Position numbers and translations under genes: made by a program. Positions 3,874 through 63,822 of a DNA stretch of 64,000 nt are shown here, piece after piece (the first letter of the stretch is position 1; every line of letters starts with the position of its first letter). The stretch is from Candidatus Omnitrophota bacterium (GTDB lineage Bacteria; Omnitrophota; Gorgyraeia; Gygaellales; Profunditerraquicolaceae), in assembly GCA_018897555.1 (NCBI GenBank), contig JAHIKK010000112.1:12275-76274 (forward strand), given 5' to 3'. Under the pieces are notes generated by a model. It made no database searches. It was given only the letters and a program-made list of their open reading frames with translations, and was not told the DNA's origin.

Positions 3874-5082
3874 TTAGAGATCCAGATGATGCCCTAGTTT
3901 CTCTTTTTTTGTTTTAAGGTATTTATAATTCTGAGCGTTAGGCTCAATCTCTAAGGGTACCCGCTGTGAAACTCCTAAGCCATAACCTTCCAGGCCGACA
4001 ATCTTGCGCGGATTATTCGTTAACAGCCTGATCTGCTTAATCCCTAAATCTACAAGAATCTGGGCGCCAATACCGTAATCGCGTAAATCCGCCTTATGCC
4101 CCAATGCTTCATTGGCCTCTACCGTATCCATTCCGTTATCCTGAAGGTTATACGCGCGCAGTTTCTCGACTAATCCGATGCCGCGGCCTTCTTGATGCAT
4201 ATAAAGGATCACGCCTTTTTTCTCCAGAGCAATCATCTGCATCGCCTTTTCTAATTGCCTTCCGCAGTCACAGCGCAATGAGCCAAAGACATCCCCGGTT
4301 AAACACTCTGAATGTACGCGGACCAATATTGATTCATCTAACCAGCTACCCATACACAAAGCAATGTGTGTCTGGCCATTGGTCTGATCGCGATAAACAA
4401 TTAACTTAAACTCACCAAATTTCGTGGGTAATTTGGTCTCTACAATTGCCTCCACCAGTTTCTCGCTCCTGCGGCGATATTCAATCAGGCTGGCAATCGT
4501 ACAAATCTTTAAAGTATGCTTCTTGGCAAACTCCCGAAGCTGCGGCAGGCGAGCCATAGTCCCGTCATCATTCATAATCTCGCAAATTACTCCGGCCGGA
4601 TAAAGCCCGGCCAGCCGCATTAAATCCAAGCTGGCTTCCGTATGCCCTGCCCTGACCAAGACTCCGCCGCGGCGCGAACGCAAAGGAAAAATGTGCCCGG
4701 GACGCACCAGGTCTTCCGGCTTGGTTTGCGCATTAATTAAAACTTCAATGGTTTTAGCCCGGTCGCCAGCAGAAATACCCGTACTCACCCCTAAAGCGGC
4801 ATCCACAGAAATCATCCAAGCGGTCTTAAAAGGATCCTCATTACCGGCTTGCAAAGTATTCTTAAGCATAGGATCAAGCTCCAATAAACGCAGCCGCTCC
4901 TCCTCCATGGGAACACAAATCAGTCCCCGCCCAAATTTAGCCATAAAATTAATGTCTGCGGATTTAACGCTGGAAGCGGCCATCACTAAATCCCCCTCGT
5001 TCTCCCGGTCTTCATCGTCAACGACAATGACCATTAATCCGGCTTTTAAATCTTCTAAAATTTCTGTGATGGAATTAAACAT
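3874..5082 (-). CDS. ribBA: Bifunctional 3,4-dihydroxy-2-butanone-4-phosphate synthase / GTP cyclohydrolase II
   Basis: [20 protein letters not shown] (DHBP synthase) plus C-terminal GTP cyclohydrolase II (HSECLTGD...CDCG). Start set at the MFNSITEIL Met, because the longer track ORF would run into the riboswitch terminator; RBS ggag lies upstream of it. Confidence 0.9.
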
Positions 5083-5089
5083 AAGTCTC

Positions 5090-5123
5090 CATAAAAAAAA
5101 TAAACCCGAAAACAATCTTCGGG
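5090..5123 (-). terminator. Rho-independent terminator/attenuator (FMN riboswitch expression platform)
   Basis: Minus-strand cccgaagattgttttcggg hairpin followed by tttatttttttt, directly upstream of the ribBA RBS. Confidence 0.8.
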
Positions 5124-5138
5124 CGTATTAATGTCAAT

Positions 5139-5272
5139 CTTTTCTCATCTGGACTTTCGCCGTAAAAAAAACGGCACCATCGGCCCTGGAATCTCACCAG
5201 ATCTGTCCGCCACAAAATCCATGGCTGACTCGCGGGCTAAACCGCCGGTAAGGAATTGCACCTTGCCCTAAA
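5139..5272 (-). promoter_or_regulatory. FMN riboswitch (RFN element) controlling the rib operon
   Basis: Minus-strand sequence GGGCAAGGTGCAATTCCTTACCGGCGGTTTAGCCCGCGAG ... GGTGAGATTCCAGGGCCGATGGTGCC ... GAAAGTCCAGATGAGAAAAG matches the conserved FMN aptamer core (GGGCAGGGTGAAATTCCCGACCGGCGGTA..AGCCCGCGAGC ... GGTGGATTCAG..GCCGACAGT.AAAGTCTGGATGGGAGAAG). Confidence 0.9.
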
Positions 5273-5342
5273 GATTAATTGTTATTATCTTAACAGAAAA
5301 ACGGGGCTTGTCAATACAATTAAAAACAACTATAATACATCT

Positions 5343-22570: not shown

Positions 22571-23208
22571 GATAAAAATAGAAACGGTCCCATTATTCCT
22601 TCACGTTTTAACCGTTTTATCTTCATATATTGACTAGGCGTAACTCCAAAGGTAGCTTTGGAGATTTCTGCTGTTAAAATTTCGTAATCCTTTTTCTCTT
22701 GTGCCCCGCGTTTCTGCCATTCATCCGTAAGCTCTTCACGAATAGCAATACCCCGCATTCTTTTCTCAATCCAATCATCAGGATAACCTTTAAGCTTGTA
22801 AAGCATCCTTGTTCTTTTTGTAGCAAGCTCAGGATTTTCAATCTCCTGAATACGTTCATAGCCAACTTTCGCTAACCAACGTTTAAATAGCTCAGCTTTA
22901 GGAGATGGCACTGACTGAACAATACGAAAAATACCTTCTGTATTAGCGCAATCGGTCTCGTATTTTTTGCCGTCAGACGCTTCTAATTTGAGTCCGTGAC
23001 AAAATGTCACGACCTCGCTACCTTCCTCTCTTAATCTTTGTTTTAATTTACGCCAATAAGCGCCCGCATCAATACTGTCCGTTAATACTCCGCACACATC
23101 CGCAACGGAAAACCACCACTCATTCTTATGAATGGTTTTTCGTACCTTCTTACCTTTAAATATCGCTATCTTTGTCTCCATACTCCCCTCCTTTTCCTGC
23201 GTTATCAT
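22567..23208 (-). CDS. Bro-N domain protein (DinD / phage antirepressor-like)
   Basis: KIAIFKGKKVRKTIHKNEWWFSVADVCGVL matches the BRO-N fold; its last 8 codons (MGPFLFLS*) are encoded by the repeat element itself. Confidence 0.6.
   Translation of the reverse strand: MITQEKEGSMETKIAIFKGKKVRKTIHKNEWWFSVADVCGVLTDSIDAGAYWRKLKQRLREEGSEVVTFCHGLKLEASDGKKYETDCANTEGIFRIVQSVPSPKAELFKRWLAKVGYERIQEIENPELATKRTRMLYKLKGYPDDWIEKRMRGIAIREELTDEWQKRGAQEKKDYEILTAEISKATFGVTPSQYMKIKRLKREGIMGPFLFLS
22571..22599 (+). repeat. Repeat family copy R1 (gataaaaatagaaacggtcccattattcc)
   Basis: 24/24 identity with 23483-23506; same family as 55304-55327 and 57065-57090. Confidence 0.7.
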
Positions 23209-23482: not shown

Positions 23483-23519
23483 GATAAAAATAGAAACGGT
23501 CCCATTGTTTCATTATTTC
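23483..23519 (+). repeat. Repeat family copy R2 (gataaaaatagaaacggtcccattgtttcattatttc); direct repeat of R1
   Basis: Direct-orientation copy; R1/R2 bracket the Bro-N gene and the 79-aa membrane protein gene. Confidence 0.7.
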
Positions 23520-23588
23520 GAAGTATCGCTCTTTTCTTATGCCCAAAAAGTGCCCAATTTATTCAATAATTTTCCTTAATGTATATTA

Positions 23589-23655
23589 GCGGGTGACGAT
23601 GGCTGGATTCGAGGACGCTTCAGGCGGCCGAGAAACAGGCATCGGCAGGACCCGC
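23589..23655 (+). other. GC-rich structured element A (gcgggtgac...ggcaggacccgc closing stem), candidate small RNA or structured repeat
   Basis: ~67 nt at >60% GC in an AT-rich intergenic region; 6-bp closing helix gcgggt/acccgc plus internal cgatg/catcg pairing; 23666-23695 then forms atcct-tc-gggcc-tac-ggccc-tc-aggat. Confidence 0.3.
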
Positions 23656-23703
23656 ATAAACCGAGATCCTTCGGGCCTACGGCCCTCAGGATGACAGTAT
23701 ATC

Positions 23704-52249: not shown

Positions 52250-54039
<1,790 letters not shown>

Positions 54040-54075
54040 TTATAATGAACTGTGGTGAAACTCATACGCGTCTGT

Positions 54076-54218
54076 CTTGTCTTGTTCCTCCGCGCACCGC
54101 TTGAGCCGCCCCAGCGTGGCGGCTCTACGCTCGAGCAGAATCTTGCGCTCCCCGCCAAGAATCGTGGCGGGACCGTGCCCGCGCAAGATTCTTAACGTGC
54201 GCTCCGGAACAAGCCAAG
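54076..54218. repeat. ~145-nt GC-rich rod-like palindromic element (MITE-like or 6S-like structured RNA)
   Basis: Closing arms cttgtcttgttcctccgcgcac / gtgcgctccggaacaagccaag (about 19 of 22 positions complementary) enclosing nested hairpins gagccgcc-N7-ggcggctc, agaatcttgcgc...gcgcaagattct, cccgcca-N7-tggcggg; the 60-aa track ORF inside (54040-54222) is probably not coding. Confidence 0.4.
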
Positions 54219-54310
54219 CCATCCGCTAAATCAAGAGTGTCCCCTTTTAAAACGTCCCCCGATTCCATACTGTTCTCCGCCAAAGCAACTATTAATTATT
54301 TTTATCGATC

Positions 54311-55102
54311 TTATTTAATTCTAGAAAAATCAATCGGTATCCGTTTCTCCTCGTTTTCATAAATAACCACAATTTCATACTTTGACGATAAATTAATATC
54401 ACTGTAATTGTATAAATGGCTAGGTTTCTGCACTGATAAACCGACAACGTCACTGCTATCTATCTTCAAATCTTTGCGATATTGTTCAGCGATCTTGTTT
54501 GCCATCTCCATTGTTTGCTTCACGACAGCATTAGCGGTTTCCTGCCAGTTGTTCTGGACACCCAACAGATGAGAGTAAGAATATGGGCTTTTGTCATTGT
54601 ATAATGGGTTCGATTCAGCTTCTTGAACTTTGATGCCATCTTTGAGCAAAACAAAATTTACTTTACTCTGAAATGCATATAATCCAGCGCCAACTGGGTT
54701 AACCTGCTCTACTGTCTCAATGTGAAATGTCGGCAGCGTTGCAAGAAAGTTAACGTAGTCCATATCTATTGCTTCATAATTCTTTGTTTGCTTGGCTGCG
54801 TAATCAGCAATCAAATAATAATTAGAGCAAATCAATATGTAGACTTGACGTATACCACCCAAGAAATTAGTAATGTTTTTTGAGTATATGAAAGCGTAAT
54901 TGATAACATCTGGCTTTAATCTGTTCTTCTTACCAAAGTCAATAGCTTCCTGTATCTGCTCTGGCGATAAACGAGCGATTAAGCCATTCTTATAATTCTT
55001 TAACGTTGCAGGACGCTGGCCTCTAATATATGTTTCCCTCATAGAAAAACCGCAGCCACTTACAAAAATGCTCAAGGTCACAATAAAAATAAGTCTCCTC
55101 AT
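54311..55102 (-). CDS. Hypothetical lipoprotein
   Basis: Signal peptide with lipobox VSGC; 263 aa, no recognised family. Confidence 0.45.
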   Translation of the reverse strand: MRRLIFIVTLSIFVSGCGFSMRETYIRGQRPATLKNYKNGLIARLSPEQIQEAIDFGKKNRLKPDVINYAFIYSKNITNFLGGIRQVYILICSNYYLIADYAAKQTKNYEAIDMDYVNFLATLPTFHIETVEQVNPVGAGLYAFQSKVNFVLLKDGIKVQEAESNPLYNDKSPYSYSHLLGVQNNWQETANAVVKQTMEMANKIAEQYRKDLKIDSSDVVGLSVQKPSHLYNYSDINLSSKYEIVVIYENEEKRIPIDFSRIK

Positions 55103-55260
55103 TTCTCCCTCTCTACAATTTAGTAGACCTCATTTAACACAGAATGAGGTTAGAATACCTTGCTCTACGCAAAAACTATAATAAAAAATTATCATTCTTG
55201 TAAATCTAAGTTCTGAAAACTTTTCTCCAAGTATCATAATTCCCAATTTTCCTCTTCTGA

Positions 55261-55327
55261 AAATAAAGAGACCGTTTCTATTTTTCTTGGGCCCGATTCT
55301 AGTAAAATAGAAACGGTCCCTTTATTC
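55261..55327. repeat. Inverted pair of the 'aaaatagaaacggtccc' repeat family forming a ~17-bp hairpin; probable bidirectional terminator
   Basis: aaataaagagaccgtttctatttt-[19-nt loop]-aaaatagaaacggtccctttattc; on the minus strand followed by a T-rich tract; sits 3' of the PH-domain protein gene. Confidence 0.6.
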
Positions 55328-55334
55328 ATTACTA

Positions 55335-55874
55335 TTATTTGTGCAATATATCAGAAATCTTTAGGTGGACGTCTTTAGGATTCTTTATGTCAATCCAAGT
55401 TAATTCTTTTACTGGTCCTCCAGCAGTATCAAATAGAATATTCCCGATTTTAGTGTTATACCATAAAACATTCACTTCGATATTCTGCACTTTGCTCAAG
55501 GGGCATTCTTTGTATGTCTTACCAATCATACCTCTTTGGGTAATAATTCTTTTATTAGTAATAGCATATATTGTGTTCTTCCATTGAGAGCGATTGATGA
55601 AAAAAGTTATAACCGTAATAACCCAAAACGGGGTCCAGAATAGGGAAATAATAGTAAATAATGATGTTGCGCCAAAAAAAGAACCCATAAATGGCCTTAC
55701 TTCAAAATACAATTTTTCTTCTGGAAGTAATGTGCCAAGGGACAATATTTTTGGAGTTATATAATGAAATTCTTTATGGATTTCCTTGGCTGAACCTTCA
55801 AGAGAACTTCCACAATGTTTACACTTAATGGCCTCATCCTGTATTTCTTCTGCGCAAAAAGGACATTTTTTCAT
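55335..55874 (-). CDS. Zinc-ribbon + membrane-anchored bacterial PH (bPH_2/YdbT-like) domain protein
   Basis: N-terminal CPFC...CKHC zinc ribbon, TM hairpin, C-terminal PH-like domain. Confidence 0.5.
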   Translation of the reverse strand: MKKCPFCAEEIQDEAIKCKHCGSSLEGSAKEIHKEFHYITPKILSLGTLLPEEKLYFEVRPFMGSFFGATSLFTIISLFWTPFWVITVITFFINRSQWKNTIYAITNKRIITQRGMIGKTYKECPLSKVQNIEVNVLWYNTKIGNILFDTAGGPVKELTWIDIKNPKDVHLKISDILHK

Positions 55875-55940
55875 TTCATATTCTCCTTTCTTAAATAATA
55901 TTAGAAAACCTCGCTCTACACCAATTAAATGTACTGCTTA

Positions 55941-56027
55941 GCGGGTGGCTTGGGTGTTTTCGACGCGCGTCAGCGCTAGAAAATACCCAAGACAGCCTGC
56001 CCGCCAATCTTTATGGCGGGGACCCGC
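55941..56027. other. GC-rich structured element B (gcgggtggc...ggcggggacccgc), related to element A; contains a cccgcc-aatctttat-ggcggg hairpin
   Basis: Same gcgggtgRc / gRcRgg(g)acccgc closing motif as 23589-23655; nested 13-bp stem cttgggtgttttc/gaaaatacccaag around palindrome gacgcgcgtc; lies in the queA 3' UTR and upstream of the PH-protein gene. Confidence 0.35.
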
Positions 56028-57019
56028 TAAATGATCAGCATTGCATCACCGTAGCTATAAAATCTATACTTCTTATCCACTGCTTCTTGATATGCCTTGG
56101 TCATTAAATCTTTGCCGCCAAATGCACAAACCAGCATGAACAGAGTAGTCATCGGAAGATGAAAATTGGTCAGCAGGCAATCTACTGATGCGAATTTGTA
56201 ACCCGGATAGATAAATAAATCTGTATTGCCTTCTTTACGGCCAGAGGCATAAGTTTCCAAAGCCCTCAGGCTGGTGGTGCCCACAGCAATAATGCGGCCT
56301 TTATCCGCTTTTACTTTAGCCAGCGCGGCAATAGTTGCATCAGGAACTAAGAAATATTCCGGCTCCATTTTGTGCTCAGTGATATTTTCGCATTTAACCG
56401 GACGGAAAGTGCCTAACCCCACATGTAATGTAACATAACCCAGATTAACGCCAACTGCCTGGATTTGTTTAAGCGATTCTGGCGTAAAATGCAGGCCGGC
56501 AGTAGGCGCAGCAAGCGCCCCTTCATTTTTTGCGTAAACCGTCTGATAATAAACTGTATCTAAATCCTCAGGATCACGTTTAATATAAGGCGGCAGAGGA
56601 ACAATCCCAAAGTTATAAATCATATCCGCATCCGTCTGCTTGAAACTAATCTGCCCCCGGCTGCTTAAAATTCCGGTAACCTTGCCGGAAGCAAAAATAA
56701 TCTTTTCACCGACTTTTGTGCGGCTGGGCTGAACCAGGCAGGAAAAAGTTGTGCCGTTAATCCGGCGGGTGAGTAAAATTTCAACTCTTCCGCCGGTTAT
56801 TTTATTCCCCATTAAACGACAGTGCAAAACCTTAGTATCATTAAGCACCAACAAATCATTTTTTCTAAAAAATCCGGCAATCTCCTTAAATACTTCGTGG
56901 CTGATCGTGCCGGTTTTTCGATTGACGATTAAAAGGCGGGCCTGGCCTCTATCTTCCAAAGGATATTGAGCAATCAGTTCCTTAGGCAGCGGATAATCAA
57001 ATTCAGTAAGTTTTAGCAT
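56027..57019 (-). CDS. queA: S-adenosylmethionine:tRNA ribosyltransferase-isomerase
   Basis: MLKLTEFDYPLPKELIAQYP canonical QueA N-terminus; the track's TTG-extended start lies inside the upstream hairpin repeat and is rejected. Confidence 0.9.
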   Translation of the reverse strand: MLKLTEFDYPLPKELIAQYPLEDRGQARLLIVNRKTGTISHEVFKEIAGFFRKNDLLVLNDTKVLHCRLMGNKITGGRVEILLTRRINGTTFSCLVQPSRTKVGEKIIFASGKVTGILSSRGQISFKQTDADMIYNFGIVPLPPYIKRDPEDLDTVYYQTVYAKNEGALAAPTAGLHFTPESLKQIQAVGVNLGYVTLHVGLGTFRPVKCENITEHKMEPEYFLVPDATIAALAKVKADKGRIIAVGTTSLRALETYASGRKEGNTDLFIYPGYKFASVDCLLTNFHLPMTTLFMLVCAFGGKDLMTKAYQEAVDKKYRFYSYGDAMLII

Positions 57020-57030
57020 ATTTAAAACTA

Positions 57031-57090
57031 GGGGACGGTTCTGTTTTTCCGAATACAATTTTAGAAAAACAGAACCGTCCCCATTATTTA
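57031..57090. repeat. Inverted pair of the repeat family (ggggacggttctgttttt / aaaaacagaaccgtcccc-attattta) forming an 18-bp hairpin between the GH gene and queA
   Basis: Perfect 18-bp stem with 16-nt loop; tail attattt matches family consensus. Confidence 0.6.
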
Positions 57091-58266
57091 ATTCAGGTAG
57101 CCGATAACTTGATCGGTTAAATCGTCAATGGAATAGAGGACTACGCCGTCGGGAGCCAGATCATTAATCAAACGAAGTTGATTAGAAAACAGGTCCGGAT
57201 TGTCTTTCATTAAGAACACCCCCATACCGACATAAATTTTCCCTTTGCCGCGATGGCCCAGGCTGCTCTTTACCACTTCTTTAGCAAACTGATTATCCTT
57301 AGTATAAGACATCAATACCACATAATCAATAATCCCCTCTTCTAACCAACCCGACCAATCCTGGAAGGCGTTGCTATAGGCGCGCTCAGTAACCGGAATA
57401 ACCGCGCAGGAGACCGCTAAACCGGGGGATTTAACTTTAACTAAACTGGTGATTTTACGCAATAAATCCGTAACCTGCTGGCGTTTCCAGTTATCCCAGG
57501 CCAAATACTCATCTTCATTGTTCAGCGTATCTAAAGCATTAATCCCGGTTTTATCGCGAAATCTCTCTATATTCATCAGCCCATAACCATAGGTTAAACC
57601 GAATTTATTAAACCTTGAACCCGGGACAAACGGAATAGGCGATGGATAACGCAGATAATCTAAGTGTATCCCGCTAAATAACGGATAACGGTTAATAATT
57701 TCATTAATAATCGTGAGTATGTACGTTTCTACCCTGGTGTCCCCCGGCTCTAAAAATATCATATCTTCTCTTAAATAATATTTATCCAACTCCGTGCTGG
57801 TAGAAATCTTCGAAGGCCTTTGATACTGATCGCGGGTAAGAATGGAACTGCCGTACTTATTCAGAATATCCGCTTTTTCGTTTTTCCCCAATCCTAAGAT
57901 GTTCACCCAGGCAAAAACTTTAATATTGTTCTGCCCGGCCTCTCTAAGCAATAAATCCAGCGTATCCAACCCGGCGGAGGCAACCATCTGGTCATATTTT
58001 GTTTTGTCAGCAATCCTCGAATCATAATAAGCATTACCCGACTGAAAAATCTGCAGATAAATCTCATTAATTTTAGCCTTATTACATTGCGCGATCAAAT
58101 TATGCACACCGGCTTCAGAATAAAGCATTTTTTTAGCGGAAAACACCGACACCCAAATACCTCGAGGAACAGCCGGCTTAACCGGAATCGGCTGATCTTC
58201 GGCTAAGGCCAATCTAAAGCTGAATAAATAACAGATTAGTAATAGAGTTAATGTTTTATGCTTCAT
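57088..58266 (-). CDS. Secreted glycoside-hydrolase-like protein (GHL10/DUF187-type TIM barrel)
   Basis: Signal peptide, conserved GIWVSVF...NEIYLQIF block. Confidence 0.5.
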   Translation of the reverse strand: MKHKTLTLLLICYLFSFRLALAEDQPIPVKPAVPRGIWVSVFSAKKMLYSEAGVHNLIAQCNKAKINEIYLQIFQSGNAYYDSRIADKTKYDQMVASAGLDTLDLLLREAGQNNIKVFAWVNILGLGKNEKADILNKYGSSILTRDQYQRPSKISTSTELDKYYLREDMIFLEPGDTRVETYILTIINEIINRYPLFSGIHLDYLRYPSPIPFVPGSRFNKFGLTYGYGLMNIERFRDKTGINALDTLNNEDEYLAWDNWKRQQVTDLLRKITSLVKVKSPGLAVSCAVIPVTERAYSNAFQDWSGWLEEGIIDYVVLMSYTKDNQFAKEVVKSSLGHRGKGKIYVGMGVFLMKDNPDLFSNQLRLINDLAPDGVVLYSIDDLTDQVIGYLN

Positions 58267-61598: not shown

Positions 61599-63785
61599 CT
61601 ATAACTTCCTCGCTATCTTCTCTATATCATAAGCTTCAATAATATCGCCTTCGACTAATTGATCAAACCCGCTAACTGCAATACCACACTCAAACCCCTC
61701 ACCAACCTCGCGCACATCATCCTTAAAACGTTTAAGGCTGGCAAGCTTGCCTTCAAAAGCAACCGCACCATTGCGCATCACGGTAATCATGCAGCTACGG
61801 TTAATCTTCCCCTTGGTTACAAAACATCCGGCAATGATACCGGAACTGGAAAGCTTAAACATCTTCCTGACTTCGACCCTGCCTAAAAATACTTTCTTTA
61901 ATTTTGGATCAAGCATACCCTCAACCGCAGCTTTTATGTCATTAGCCAGCTCATAAATAATATTATATATTTTTACATCTATGCCTTCTTTGGAGATCAA
62001 CTCCTTAGCCGGCTCATCAGCAGAAACATTAAATCCCAAAAGCAACGCATCAGAAGCTACCGCTAAAATTACATCGGAAGTATTGATATTTCCCGCCCCC
62101 AGATGGATGATATTAATTTTTATTTCGGAAACATTCAACTTCTCCAAAGTATCTTTAATTGCCTCCAGCGATCCCTGGACATCCGCCTTAATAATTAAAT
62201 TTAGTTCCTTGATTTTACCGGCGGCAATCTGCAGATGCAACTCTTCCAAGCTTACCCTCTTTACCTCTTTAACCTGCTGAAGCTTTTCTTTTTCCACGCG
62301 GGCGGCAATTAAACTCTTAGCCTGCCTTTCATCTTCAATCACAAAAAACTGGCCCCCTACCTGCGGAATTCCGCTTATCCCCAAAATCTCTACCGGAGTT
62401 GCCGGGCCGACAGAAGTTACTCCCTGCCCCCGGTCATTGAGCATCGCCCTGACTTTTCCATATAAATTACCTACGATTATATTCTGGTTAAGATGTAATG
62501 TGCCGTTCTGCACAAGCAATGTCGCTACCGGCCCCCTGCCTTTAGCCATCCGGGCTTCCACGACTACTCCATAGGCCAGGCGGTCAGGATTGGCTTTTAA
62601 TTCCATAATTTCGGCTTGCAACAAAATCATCTCCAGTAAGCTGTCTATTCCCGCGCCGGTCTTAGCAGAGACCGGGACAGTAATCGTTTTACCGCCCCAA
62701 TCCTCAGGATTTAATCCGGCTGCAGCTAACTGTTTTTTAACCGTGTCTATATTTGCCTGCGCTTTATCTATTTTATTAATCGCCACGATGATCGTTACTC
62801 CGGCAGCCCGCGCATGGTCGATGGCTTCCTGAGTTTGCGACATAATTCCGTCATCAGCAGCTACGACTAACACCACAATATCGGTAATCCGGGCGCCGCG
62901 AGCACGCATCGCGGTAAATGCTTCATGGCCGGGTGTATCTAAAAAGGTAATCTCCCCCTGCGGAAGGCTGACCCGGTAAGCACCGATATGTTGAGTAATC
63001 CCTCCATGTTCTCCTTCTGTAACTTTAGTTTTACGTATGGCATCCAAAAGAGAGGTCTTACCATGATCAACATGCCCCATAAAGGTTACTATCGGTGAAC
63101 GGCTCTTTTGCTCTTGCGGCTTATCTATTTTTTGATGCGCCTGCAAAGCCGTTTCTTCGGCATTCAAAGCTTTCTTAACTCCAAAATTATATTTTAAACA
63201 TAATTTATTTAAAGTAGCCTCATCTAAAGACTGATTAATCCCGATCATTACCCCCATACCCATAAGATGCTTAATCAGAACCGAAGACTTCTCCTGTAAT
63301 TTTATGGATAAATCTTTAACCGTAATCGGAAGCTCCAGTTCAATCTCTTTTTCCGGGCCGGCTTCGGCCTTAACCTCAGGGATAAATTCTGATTTCACTG
63401 GAGGAGAAACTTCGACTTTTGCCTCTGGCTTATGGATAGGCTTAACTGCCACTTTTACTTCAACCTTGAGCTCAGGTTTTATTACCGGTTTAACTACCGC
63501 TTTCACTTCAACCTTGGCTTCAGGTTTTATTACCGGTTTAACTGCCATTTTCACTTCAACCCTAGGCTCAGATTTTGCTACCGGTTTAAGCATAGACTTA
63601 AATACCGGCTTAATTTTTTCCTTAACCTTGTTTACTGCCAATTTGAGCTTAAGCGGCTTAGCTAGAGGCTTAAACTTAACCGCCTCTTGCGCTTTAGCAA
63701 CCGGCTTCTTAGTTTTTACCTCCACTTTAACCTTAGGCTTAACTATTTTTTTTACTACTTTTTTTTCTTTTTTTATTTTTAGCAT
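61599..63785 (-). CDS. infB: Translation initiation factor IF-2
   Basis: G domain ([12 protein letters not shown]), IF-2 domains; lysine-rich repetitive N-terminus; start set at MLKIKK downstream of the GC hairpin. Confidence 0.95.
63440..63585 (-). repeat. In-frame ~39-nt tandem repeats inside the infB N-terminal region
   Basis: Encodes 3-4 copies of VKPVIKPE[AL]KVEVK; DNA repeats ggtttaactRccRctttcacttcaaccttggctYcaggtttt. Confidence 0.6.
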
Positions 63786-63801
63786 ATTTTTCTCTTTCTC
63801 G

Positions 63802-63822
63802 CCCGCCAATCTTTGTGGCGGG
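63802..63822 (-). other. GC hairpin cccgcc-aatctttgt-ggcggg between nusA stop and infB start
   Basis: Near-identical to the hairpins at 55999-56020 and 54151-54171. Confidence 0.5.

Follow-up and report, generated by a model that had tools for sequence, protein, structure and literature searches.

A dispersed, mosaic family of structured intergenic repeats in Candidatus Omnitrophota, with a full copy upstream of tgt

In the window (the whole 64,000-nucleotide stretch of Candidatus Omnitrophota DNA analysed here), a GC-rich stretch of high folding potential lies between the tRNA-guanine transglycosylase gene tgt and a lipoprotein-like gene. Is it an RNA gene, a regulator of the queuosine gene at its side, or a piece of mobile DNA? 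The preliminary description had placed it at 54076–54218 and had compared it both with 6S RNA and with a MITE. Structure is present over that interval, and the element reaches beyond it on both sides, to ~54065–54230 by comparison with its family (match to the covariance model R1: 54064–54232, minus strand). The ends were set where the flanks of the family members lose all conservation. The family is specific to a clade of Candidatus Omnitrophota and had not been filed before.

The element upstream of tgt and its folded strand

The element lies inside the 277-nt spacer upstream of tgt, among local genes that are all on the minus strand (Table 1), and its functional (sense) strand is likewise the minus strand of the window. 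Translation of tgt begins 31 nt downstream of the element's 3' end, and the gene order past tgt is trmD, rplS, rnhB. The GC content of the 169-nt element is 0.62 against 0.426 for the window, and no other 169-nt stretch in the 64 kb is richer in GC (top 0.05%). When a 221-nt stretch was folded, the plus strand gave -84.9 kcal/mol (z = -6.2) and the minus strand -96.9 kcal/mol (z = -5.0), and on neither strand did any of the 200 shuffles fold as well. The GC-rich, structured character noticed at first sight is therefore real. The description as fully palindromic does not hold, since the window copy scores 153.7 bits with R1 on the minus strand (E = 7e-45) and only 30.7 bits on the plus strand. 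The corresponding nhmmer match has E = 2.5e-41.

Table 1. Positions of the element, its parts, related hairpins and neighbouring genes in the window
Feature	Position	Strand	Remarks
Full-length copy of repeat family 'E'	54065–54230	-	Ends TTTA-GCG...CGC-GTA; R1 match
P1 5' arm of outer rod, GCGGAUGGCUUGGCUUGUUCC	54206–54226	-	Pairs with 54068–54088; sequence kept family-wide
P1 3' arm, GGAACAAGACAAGACAGACGC	54068–54088	-	Most sequence-conserved part; outer end, abuts neighbour genes
P2 helix closing the three-way junction	54092–54202	-	GCGCAC 54197–54202 with GUGCGC 54092–54097
P3 hairpin	54137–54192	-	Basal helix 54181–54192 with 54137–54148
P3 asymmetric internal loop, GGGCACGGU	54172–54180	-	Opposite GA, 54149–54150
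P3 tip helix, CCCGCC/GGCGGG	54166–54171 with 54151–54156	-	Hypervariable tip in family
P4 hairpin, GAGCCGCC / GGCGGCUC	54103–54125	-	7-nt loop ACGCUGG, 54111–54117
Small hairpin, AAUCGGGGGACG...GGGGACACUCUUGAUU	54231–54268	-	Directly 5' of element; different repeat type
Short rod-only relative	55935–56031	+	3' end overlaps queA stop codon; nested hairpin 55999–56021
Second short rod-only relative, UUAGCGGGUGACGAUGG...CAUCGGCAGGACCCGC	23583–23659	+	R1 26.3 bits, E = 2e-6 (filters off)
Standalone small hairpin, GCCCGCCAATCTTTGTGGCGGG	63801–63822		Repeat family D6
tgt (tRNA-guanine transglycosylase)	52921–54033	-	Pfam TGT; homologs named Tgt
263-aa lipoprotein-like ORF	54311–55102	-	Variable cargo between two family members
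179-aa zinc-ribbon/bPH_2 ORF	55335–55874	-	Variable cargo; Pfam
queA	56027–57058	-	Conserved gene on other side of variable block; Pfam Queuosine_synth

In overall shape, the folded sense strand is an outer rod that leads to a three-way junction from which two hairpins emerge. The closing helix proposed earlier between 54076–54097 and 54197–54218 is present, with 18 of the 22 positions complementary rather than about 19. It encloses a long hairpin (54137–54192), whose nested tip is CCCGCC-N9-GGCGGG at 54151–54171, and a second GC hairpin (54103–54125). The P1 arms of the window copy make 17 standard pairs over 21 positions, and the four mismatches among them (G.A/A.G, G.G and G.A) are conserved throughout the family. 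Family members begin with TTTA-GCG at the 5' end and finish with CGC-(G)TA at the 3' end, and the motif GAGCG stands at four helix boundaries.

A 60-aa ORF (54040–54222, minus strand) lies wholly inside the element and its immediate 3' flank. The lengths of the copies across the family fall into all three residue classes modulo 3 (34/28/22), so that there is no conserved reading frame for this ORF. These lengths argue against a coding role for the ORF, which had been suspected from the outset of being a GC artefact, and point to an element that is not coding.

A mosaic family and its covarying fold

The 21-mer arm pattern GRAACAAGACAAGRCAGMCGC, taken from the 3' arm, matched 107 metagenome-contig stretches, where only a handful would be expected by chance (our rough estimate, for an assumed collection size); about 10 of the 107 are unrelated GC-rich sequences. 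About 100 full-length copies were recovered with an nhmmer profile made from seven copies, and the covariance model R1, built from 73 copies, returned 84 full sense copies in addition to short and long forms. Several contigs carry 2–3 copies, and many contigs terminate within one. The variants comprise rod-only short forms of 57–97 nt, long forms of 205–283 nt with extra hairpins, and lone 3' halves; optional extra stems are found in the copies at L107, L147, L152 and L138 (L numbers denote the loci collected). A distant full-length relative is present in a marine Omnitrophota genome (L043, 35 bits).

With filters off, R1 finds one full copy and two short forms in the window. The short form near queA is matched at 55935–56004 (plus strand, 27.4 bits, E = 1e-6, filters off), and the whole of it, 55935–56031, folds at -55.2 kcal/mol (z = -5.7). 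The same short form occurs in L004 without the nested hairpin. The additional copies on which a repeat reading of the preliminary description depended thus exist, two of the short forms being in the window itself. The small hairpin module GCCCGCCAATCTTTGTGGCGGG occurs alone at 63801, nested within a short form at ~55999–56021, and as the P3 tip of the full copy at 54151–54171. The kinship once proposed between the inner hairpin and those at 56000 and 63802 is borne out by identical 7-bp stems and 73% overall identity with the hairpins at 55999 and 63801 (repeat family D6). The small hairpin that adjoins the element on its 5' side (54231–54268) is shared by L006, L011, L018 and L024, with G-C to G-U changes. 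Subfamilies of the element have their arms in common and their inner hairpins swapped, so the family is a mosaic. Taken together, the matches describe a multi-copy, dispersed, mosaic family of ~170-nt elements.

No match to the family was found in viral contigs, plasmid records or phage records. Rfam models, among them 6S (RF00013), gave no match to the window at gathering score, to 53950–54350 on both strands at E <= 10, or to nine further copies. A full-text literature search brought up no report of a repeat like this one in Omnitrophota, an uncultivated and widespread phylum for which we likewise found nothing written on mobile or repetitive DNA.

Covariation was tested on an alignment of 84 copies fitted to the covariance model, with shuffles and with partners slid by 1–3 columns as controls. 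Standard pairs occupy 89.2% of the cells, against 75.9% in shuffles. Changes on both sides were seen in 32 of the 44 pairs (shuffles, 19.2 ± 1.7), and double-sided change affects 401 cells, compared with 93. Shuffling lowers the covariation score from 0.332 to 0.106, and with slid partners it never exceeds 0.107. The same covarying pair types had already been seen in a structure-blind MAFFT alignment. The rod (P1/P2) is paired at 93–94%. P2 covaries across subfamilies (GCGCAC/GUGCGC, GCAGGG/CCCUGC, GCAGCAUC/GGUGCUGC), with five of its eight pairs altered on both sides in the 84-copy alignment. The P3 tip helix is 99.4% paired and all four modelled pairs covary. P4, a 7–8-bp hairpin, has six of seven pairs altered on both sides, and reading the alignment by eye revealed about eight distinct stem sequences, every one of them paired.

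Unpaired positions are conserved as well. The nucleotides of the P3 internal loop are invariant or nearly so among 73 copies; an invariant GGGCANGGU opposite GA makes up this asymmetric loop family-wide, and the P4 loop keeps NCGCNGG across the family. The family therefore has what is looked for in a stand-alone non-coding RNA, a covariation-supported fold with conserved unpaired nucleotides. It also has the hairpin expected of a REPIN/RAYT system, which is made of inverted halves and is conserved at the level of the single strand. A likeness to hammerhead, twister or K-turn motifs (GA tandems, a GAAAC stretch) was also considered and fails across subfamilies when the alignment is read.

The two strands are not equivalent. 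Sense matches to R1 score 88–185 bits and the same loci read antisense only 21–38 bits, a difference that sets the element well apart from a true palindrome. With the P3a helix left out, which is misaligned in one subfamily, G.U pairs outnumber A.C pairs 75 to 30. With the covariation, these comparisons show that a single-strand fold of the family is under selection.

Placement of the copies and candidate explanations

Relatives' tgt loci were gathered by exact-protein look-up and genome scan. The cargo ORFs between queA and tgt are swapped for other genes in these relatives. The element also precedes tgt in a 98%-identical relative (L011), but there the upstream gene and the tip of the long hairpin are different. 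In relatives at 87–91% Tgt identity (L004, L013, L014, L007/8) the element is absent or other hairpins stand in its place: the queA–tgt interval contains a 70-nt rod-only hairpin in L004 and unrelated hairpins in L013 and L014, and in L006–L008 it holds a flavodoxin gene and short repeats. Full homologs were found by nhmmer in L009, L017, L018, L019 and L036, at varying distances from tgt, and the copies in L017 and L036 are inverted relative to it. The copies that occupy the orthologous site before tgt come from different subfamilies. The queA–tgt spacer, a variable block in this clade, holds about a quarter of the metagenome copies, and ~75% of the full metagenome copies are on loci without tgt or queA, many of these loci being only 1–3 kb long. 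Promoter and terminator consensus scans around the window element gave nothing beyond chance.

Because the element is absent or replaced in the relatives at 87–91%, inverted in L017 and L036, and mostly located away from tgt, we infer that the window copy is not a dedicated regulator of tgt and is carried passively in its leader. It would be co-transcribed into the tgt-trmD-rplS leader, where its highly stable fold would stand 31 nt ahead of the start codon, and it may form the tgt-proximal boundary of the variable queA–tgt block.

Pairs of copies that are 94–96% identical have unrelated flanks on both sides. Together with the mixed subfamilies at tgt, such pairs argue for transfer or conversion of sequences from locus to locus, as opposed to local divergence. 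Apart from TTTA at the 5' end and (G)T(T)A(A) at the 3' end, the flanks are devoid of information, and no conserved promoter or terminator was found in 70 nt of flank on either side. The lengths of direct repeats at the ends are distributed as in a control with swapped flanks; the exceptions are two 8-mers, whose offsets disagree. TA is common at either end but also extends the stem, and a TA duplication would look the same as such an extension. No clean pair of a filled and an empty site came out of the loci compared.

Clustering of 283 flanking ORFs yielded only housekeeping families and no recurring transposase; the neighbour proteins are QueA, Tgt, TrmD, L19, CrcB, TopA, a Xer-like recombinase, GreA and KdtA. 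In about 2 Mb around copies and tgt loci, no Y1/HUH enzyme, transposase or integrase recurs beside copies. A tblastn search with IS200/IS608 TnpA and IntI1 queries returned only Xer-like genes at one unrelated locus, a weak negative, and Pfam found no transposase among the cargo genes. The MITE comparison in the preliminary description holds in its essentials. The element is small and non-coding, has inverted-repeat arms, and occurs at many unrelated intergenic sites in both orientations. It departs from a textbook MITE in that no target-site duplication rises above the control, no autonomous partner was found for it in these searches, and its interior is structurally constrained, with covariation and invariant loop nucleotides.

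The gene context was assigned for 69 copies, of which 34 are co-oriented with and 21 antisense to the flanking genes, 12 have convergent neighbours and 2 have divergent ones. The bias to co-orientation (34:21) has p = 0.10; by a GC-skew proxy it is 40:18 (p = 0.005), and as GC skew mirrors coding-strand bias, this proxy does not separate a replication bias from a transcription bias. The conserved loops, the extra stems, the 2:1 gene-orientation bias and the scarcity in divergent regions (2/69) also fit a function at the RNA level.

The placement of the copies is polar. The median distance to a facing stop codon is 4 nt from the 3' end and 78 nt from the 5' end (Mann-Whitney p = 6e-5), and that to a facing start codon is 25 nt and 87 nt, respectively (p = 0.001). 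A shared 3' flank with differing 5' contexts was found in 10 groups, the reverse in 2, after leaving out one group that is merely another repeat family. Of ten pairs of neighbouring copies separated by less than 2.5 kb, nine face each other with their 5' ends and point their 3' ends outward (p = 3e-5); when only independent loci are counted, all five do so (p about 0.001). The pair in the window is arranged in this inward way as well, in the order queA, short form, two cargo genes, full copy and tgt. The genes enclosed by such pairs are SIR2_2, DUF4041+T5orf172, DUF5677, ORF6N, DUF3800, TPR, a PDZ lipoprotein, a crcB operon and unknowns. These distances and flanks indicate a polar element whose 3' arm abuts conserved genes and whose 5' side faces variable DNA. 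No ordinary model explains the polarity and the inward pairs, and they are the main reason to look further.

We consider the element to be probably a non-autonomous, structure-dependent mobile or recombinogenic repeat, of the same general kind as REPIN, ERIC, Correia and MITE elements. The family would spread and homogenise among intergenic sites through a process that reads the folded single strand, which may be single-stranded DNA or a transcript, the acting protein presumably being encoded elsewhere. Spread by such strand reading would explain why the fold is kept by compensatory changes in each subfamily and the arms are kept in sequence. The copy pairs with inward 5' ends may enclose gene blocks that can be exchanged, whether the copies act like the ends of a transposon or as handles for recombination. 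We attribute the constraint to propagation, and not to a host function served at the individual loci, because the subfamilies, each with its own compensated stems, are each dispersed, and because a third of the copies are antisense to local transcription while the tightest apposition is to opposite-strand stop codons.

A different account makes the element a cis-acting RNA, in which the rod and junction, transcribed as part of operon mRNAs, would act where genes meet by directing processing, stabilising the message or insulating translation, for example as an RNase III or RNase E target or as a protective 5' or 3' structure, the copies being kept for this role however they spread. The strong covariation and the excess of G.U over A.C on one strand are as such an RNA would have them, and so are the 2:1 bias to co-orientation with flanking genes and the near absence from divergent promoter regions (2/69). 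The 3' end of sense copies lies a median of 25 nt before the next start codon (31 nt before tgt here), and the queA–tgt spacer of the relatives always has some strong hairpin, even where the family is missing (L013, L014). However, about a third of the copies are antisense to local genes, and their conserved loops would then be read as complements. The tightest apposition (median 4 nt) is to opposite-strand stop codons, for which a sense-strand RNA role offers no explanation. Moreover, the element sequences fail to track the orthology of their loci, and a generic stabiliser would not require about 20 invariant unpaired nucleotides. We therefore regard a cis-acting RNA as unlikely.

It is quite unlikely that the element, rather than being a passive MITE, is the cis site of, or encodes the RNA partner for, a hitherto undescribed recombination system that reads structure and that installs and exchanges gene blocks at set chromosomal positions in Omnitrophota. 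The cassette of such a system would read core gene, 3'-E-5', cargo, 5'-E-3', core gene, with the 3' arm as the outer end, and the four GAGCG motifs on the flanks of the inner hairpins might be sites of recognition or cleavage, or traces left by nested insertion of hairpins. If this were so, it would be a new cassette platform that differs from integrons in having inverted rather than direct sites and no intI nearby, and it may feed the variable, partly defence-like queA–tgt gene block.

Alternatively, each copy might be a gene for a trans-acting RNA, such as a ribozyme, the RNA partner of a mobile-element enzyme, comparable to omega or bridge RNAs, or the scaffold of an RNP. Classes of functional RNA are usually recognised by features of the kind seen here, namely invariant nucleotides in junction and loops, stems that covary, and extra stems that are optional; the strong strand asymmetry and the distant marine relative (L043, 35 bits) agree with it. 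Yet within 70 nt of flank on either side there is no conserved promoter or terminator, no protein gene is recurrently associated, both orientations relative to local genes occur, truncated and rod-only derivatives are many, and no Rfam family matches. The copies have neither signals of their own nor a consistent position or orientation relative to one class of gene, their neighbours being diverse housekeeping genes. An RNA class acting in trans is accordingly a doubtful reading, which we hold to be quite improbable.

Two further readings are largely excluded. The first, an integron-type attC site or an attC cluster without integrase, would account for inner stems that keep structure more than sequence, for a folded single strand as the conserved entity, and for copies that adjoin short variable gene blocks, often directly after a stop codon; a few copies even have GTTRRRY-like ends (L011, L097, L183). 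But the consensus ends (TTTAGCG / CGC(G)TWA) are unfit for RYYYAAC / GTTRRRY in most copies, and neighbouring copies are inverted (9 of 10 pairs) rather than co-oriented. No integron integrase was found nearby, only Xer-like genes at one unrelated locus, and most copies are single between housekeeping genes. Known attC sites measure 57–141 nt, and the ~170 nt of the element exceed their usual length. We think an attC origin very improbable.

The second, a single-copy RNA of the tgt locus (6S RNA, or a preQ1/queuosine-related riboswitch or leader), is suggested by the position between two queuosine genes, queA and tgt, and by the GC-rich structured character within an AT-rich genome, and it is refuted by copy number and contexts: Rfam is silent for 6S, preQ1 and all others, the element is multi-copy with most full copies on loci without tgt and queA, and some close relatives lack it before tgt while others carry it inverted, which leaves this reading next to no credibility.

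Significance and comparison with known systems

The family shows that Omnitrophota genomes carry a complex structured repeat whose fold is kept by compensatory change and whose copies stand, with a fixed polarity, at the borders of variable blocks with SIR2-like, DUF4041/T5orf172, DUF5677 and DUF3800 genes. For annotation, R1 accounts for GC-rich 'RNA-like' islands between genes, for spurious small ORFs (60 aa here, 47 aa in L002/L003, 172 aa in L009) and for the breaking of contigs in Omnitrophota assemblies. The family also offers a tractable case of how structure-dependent repeats spread and of whether they drive gene exchange at hotspots.

6S RNA, with which the element had first been compared, is similar in length (near 170–180 nt) and in its long closing helix. 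The likeness goes no further: the element matches no model, even at E <= 10 in Rfam, has a three-way junction in place of a central bubble, lacks a conserved promoter, and is multi-copy.

REPINs are REP doublets that form hairpins and are thought to be mobilised by RAYT Y1 transposases. The element resembles them in being non-coding, multi-copy and intergenic, in having arms that pair into a long imperfect rod with conserved mismatches, in having the folded single strand as the selected unit, in showing no target duplication above the control, and in the lack of a transposase inside. It differs in being about twice as long, in arms that enclose a three-way junction, two hairpins and invariant loops, and in the absence of a GTAG-type REP head. 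No RAYT-like gene was found in the sequence around copies, a weak negative. Polar placement and inward pairs are, to our knowledge, not traits of REPINs.

ERIC/IRU and Correia elements are MITE-like palindromic intergenic repeats of enterobacteria and Neisseria, which are co-transcribed with flanking genes into long RNA hairpins, as copies of the present family would be. They share with the present family a length of 100–170 bp, inverted-repeat arms, intergenic location in both orientations, and the frequent TA at the element ends. In contrast, there is no sequence similarity, the interior of the element is strongly structured with covariation, and the host belongs to another phylum.

IS-derived MITEs are likewise small and non-coding, with terminal inverted repeats, many unrelated sites (84 full copies among the loci collected here) and truncated derivatives. 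However, no parent IS with the same ends was found and no duplication exceeds the control, and internal constraint is unexpected where a transposase binds double-stranded ends. Cut-and-paste MITEs neither need nor show a constrained interior, an observation that speaks against an ordinary MITE.

BIMEs and BOX elements are mosaic repeats of hairpin modules. The present family is a modular mosaic of the same sort, in which a small REP-like hairpin is found on its own, inside short forms and at the tip of P3. Its modules, however, are mounted on a three-way junction that stays fixed and whose junction nucleotides are invariant, and they do not form a linear string.

Gene content of the queA-tgt spacer

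The spacer between the queuosine genes queA and tgt was compared in the window (54034-56026) and in loci L004-L019, L036, L096, L132, L140, L174, L184, L191 and L196 from relatives and metagenome contigs. Its size ranged from 80 nt to >3.5 kb, and its genes encoded SIR2-like, DUF4041/T5orf172, DUF5677, ORF6N, flavodoxin, HTH, TPR and lipoprotein products as well as unknowns. Within the Omnitrophota clade sampled, this spacer is a hotspot where gene content varies. Several of these gene families are linked to anti-phage defence.

Hairpin repeats near the element

Several small repeats were found in and around the ~170-nt structured repeat upstream of tgt (the element; window copy 54065-54230 (-)). 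The small REP-like hairpin (consensus (G)CCCGCCA-N7-9-TGGCGGG) was observed in three settings: alone 3' of a gene, within the arm of short rod-only forms of the element beside TTAGCGG, and, in a subset of full elements, as the tip of the long P3 hairpin. This REP-like hairpin looks like an independent insertable module. A second palindromic repeat, GGGATATTGT..GCGTGCG...GCACGC..ACAATATCCC, was located a few nucleotides 5' of ~15 element copies with 12 distinct downstream contexts; the two families are frequent neighbours. The AAUCGGGGGACG...GGGGACAC(C/U)CU(C/U)GAUU hairpin is conserved, with G-C to G-U changes, among several relatives; L006 and L024 have it without a full element behind it.

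A separate repeat family consists of long AT-rich hairpins with a GGGACCGTTTC / GAAACGGTCCC core. L014 has related GGGGACGTTTCCC hairpins between queA and tgt, and L096, L104 and L180 have them adjoining elements. These hairpins may be terminators.

Repeats and RNA features in the window and in compared loci (L-numbers)
Feature	Location	Strand	Remarks
FMN riboswitch	5133-5279	-	Rfam RF00050, 98.1 bits (gathering score 66.2)
AT-rich GGGACCGTTTC / GAAACGGTCCC hairpins	22571-22597, 23483-23509, 55262-55326, 57022-57091		repeat families D3, I6, I7
Small REP-like hairpin	54151-54171, 55999-56021, 63801-63822
Small REP-like hairpin	L007/L008 825-845 and 1872-1892; L015 1848-1868
AAUCGGGGGACG...GGGGACAC(C/U)CU(C/U)GAUU hairpin	54231-54268	-	immediately 5' of the window element
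Same hairpin, relatives	L006 2337-2386; L011; L018; L024 8337-8395
GGGATATTGT...ACAATATCCC palindrome	L169, L124, L200, L150, L171, L108, L192 and others		5' flanks
Same palindrome	L013 2436-2478		sole occupant of the queA-tgt spacer
48-nt-period tandem repeat, three copies	63409-63589		75-76% identity, repeat family D1

Coding sequence at the repeats and the riboswitch

Public gene calls over element copies (47 aa, L002/L003 932-1075; 172 aa, L009 1453-1971 (-)) are probably spurious ORFs arising from the GC-rich repeat, comparable to the 60-aa ORF over the window copy. The 48-nt tandem repeat probably lies within a coding region. Immediately downstream of the FMN riboswitch is a 413-aa ORF (3874-5115, minus strand), inside which the second most GC-rich stretch of the window (4513-4731) is found.

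Genomic neighbours and reach of the element

In L190 (744-900 (-) and 959-1132 (-)), two co-oriented tRNA genes follow 59 nt downstream of an element copy (~69 bits apiece with Rfam tRNA), so RNA genes are also among the neighbours of the element. A weak full-length match (L043 188-361 (+), 35 bits, E ~1e-7) was detected in a marine Omnitrophota genome in which Tgt identity was only 55%. GAGCG motifs in this match occupy places comparable to those in the element, which suggests that the element family or a sister family extends past the clade sampled.
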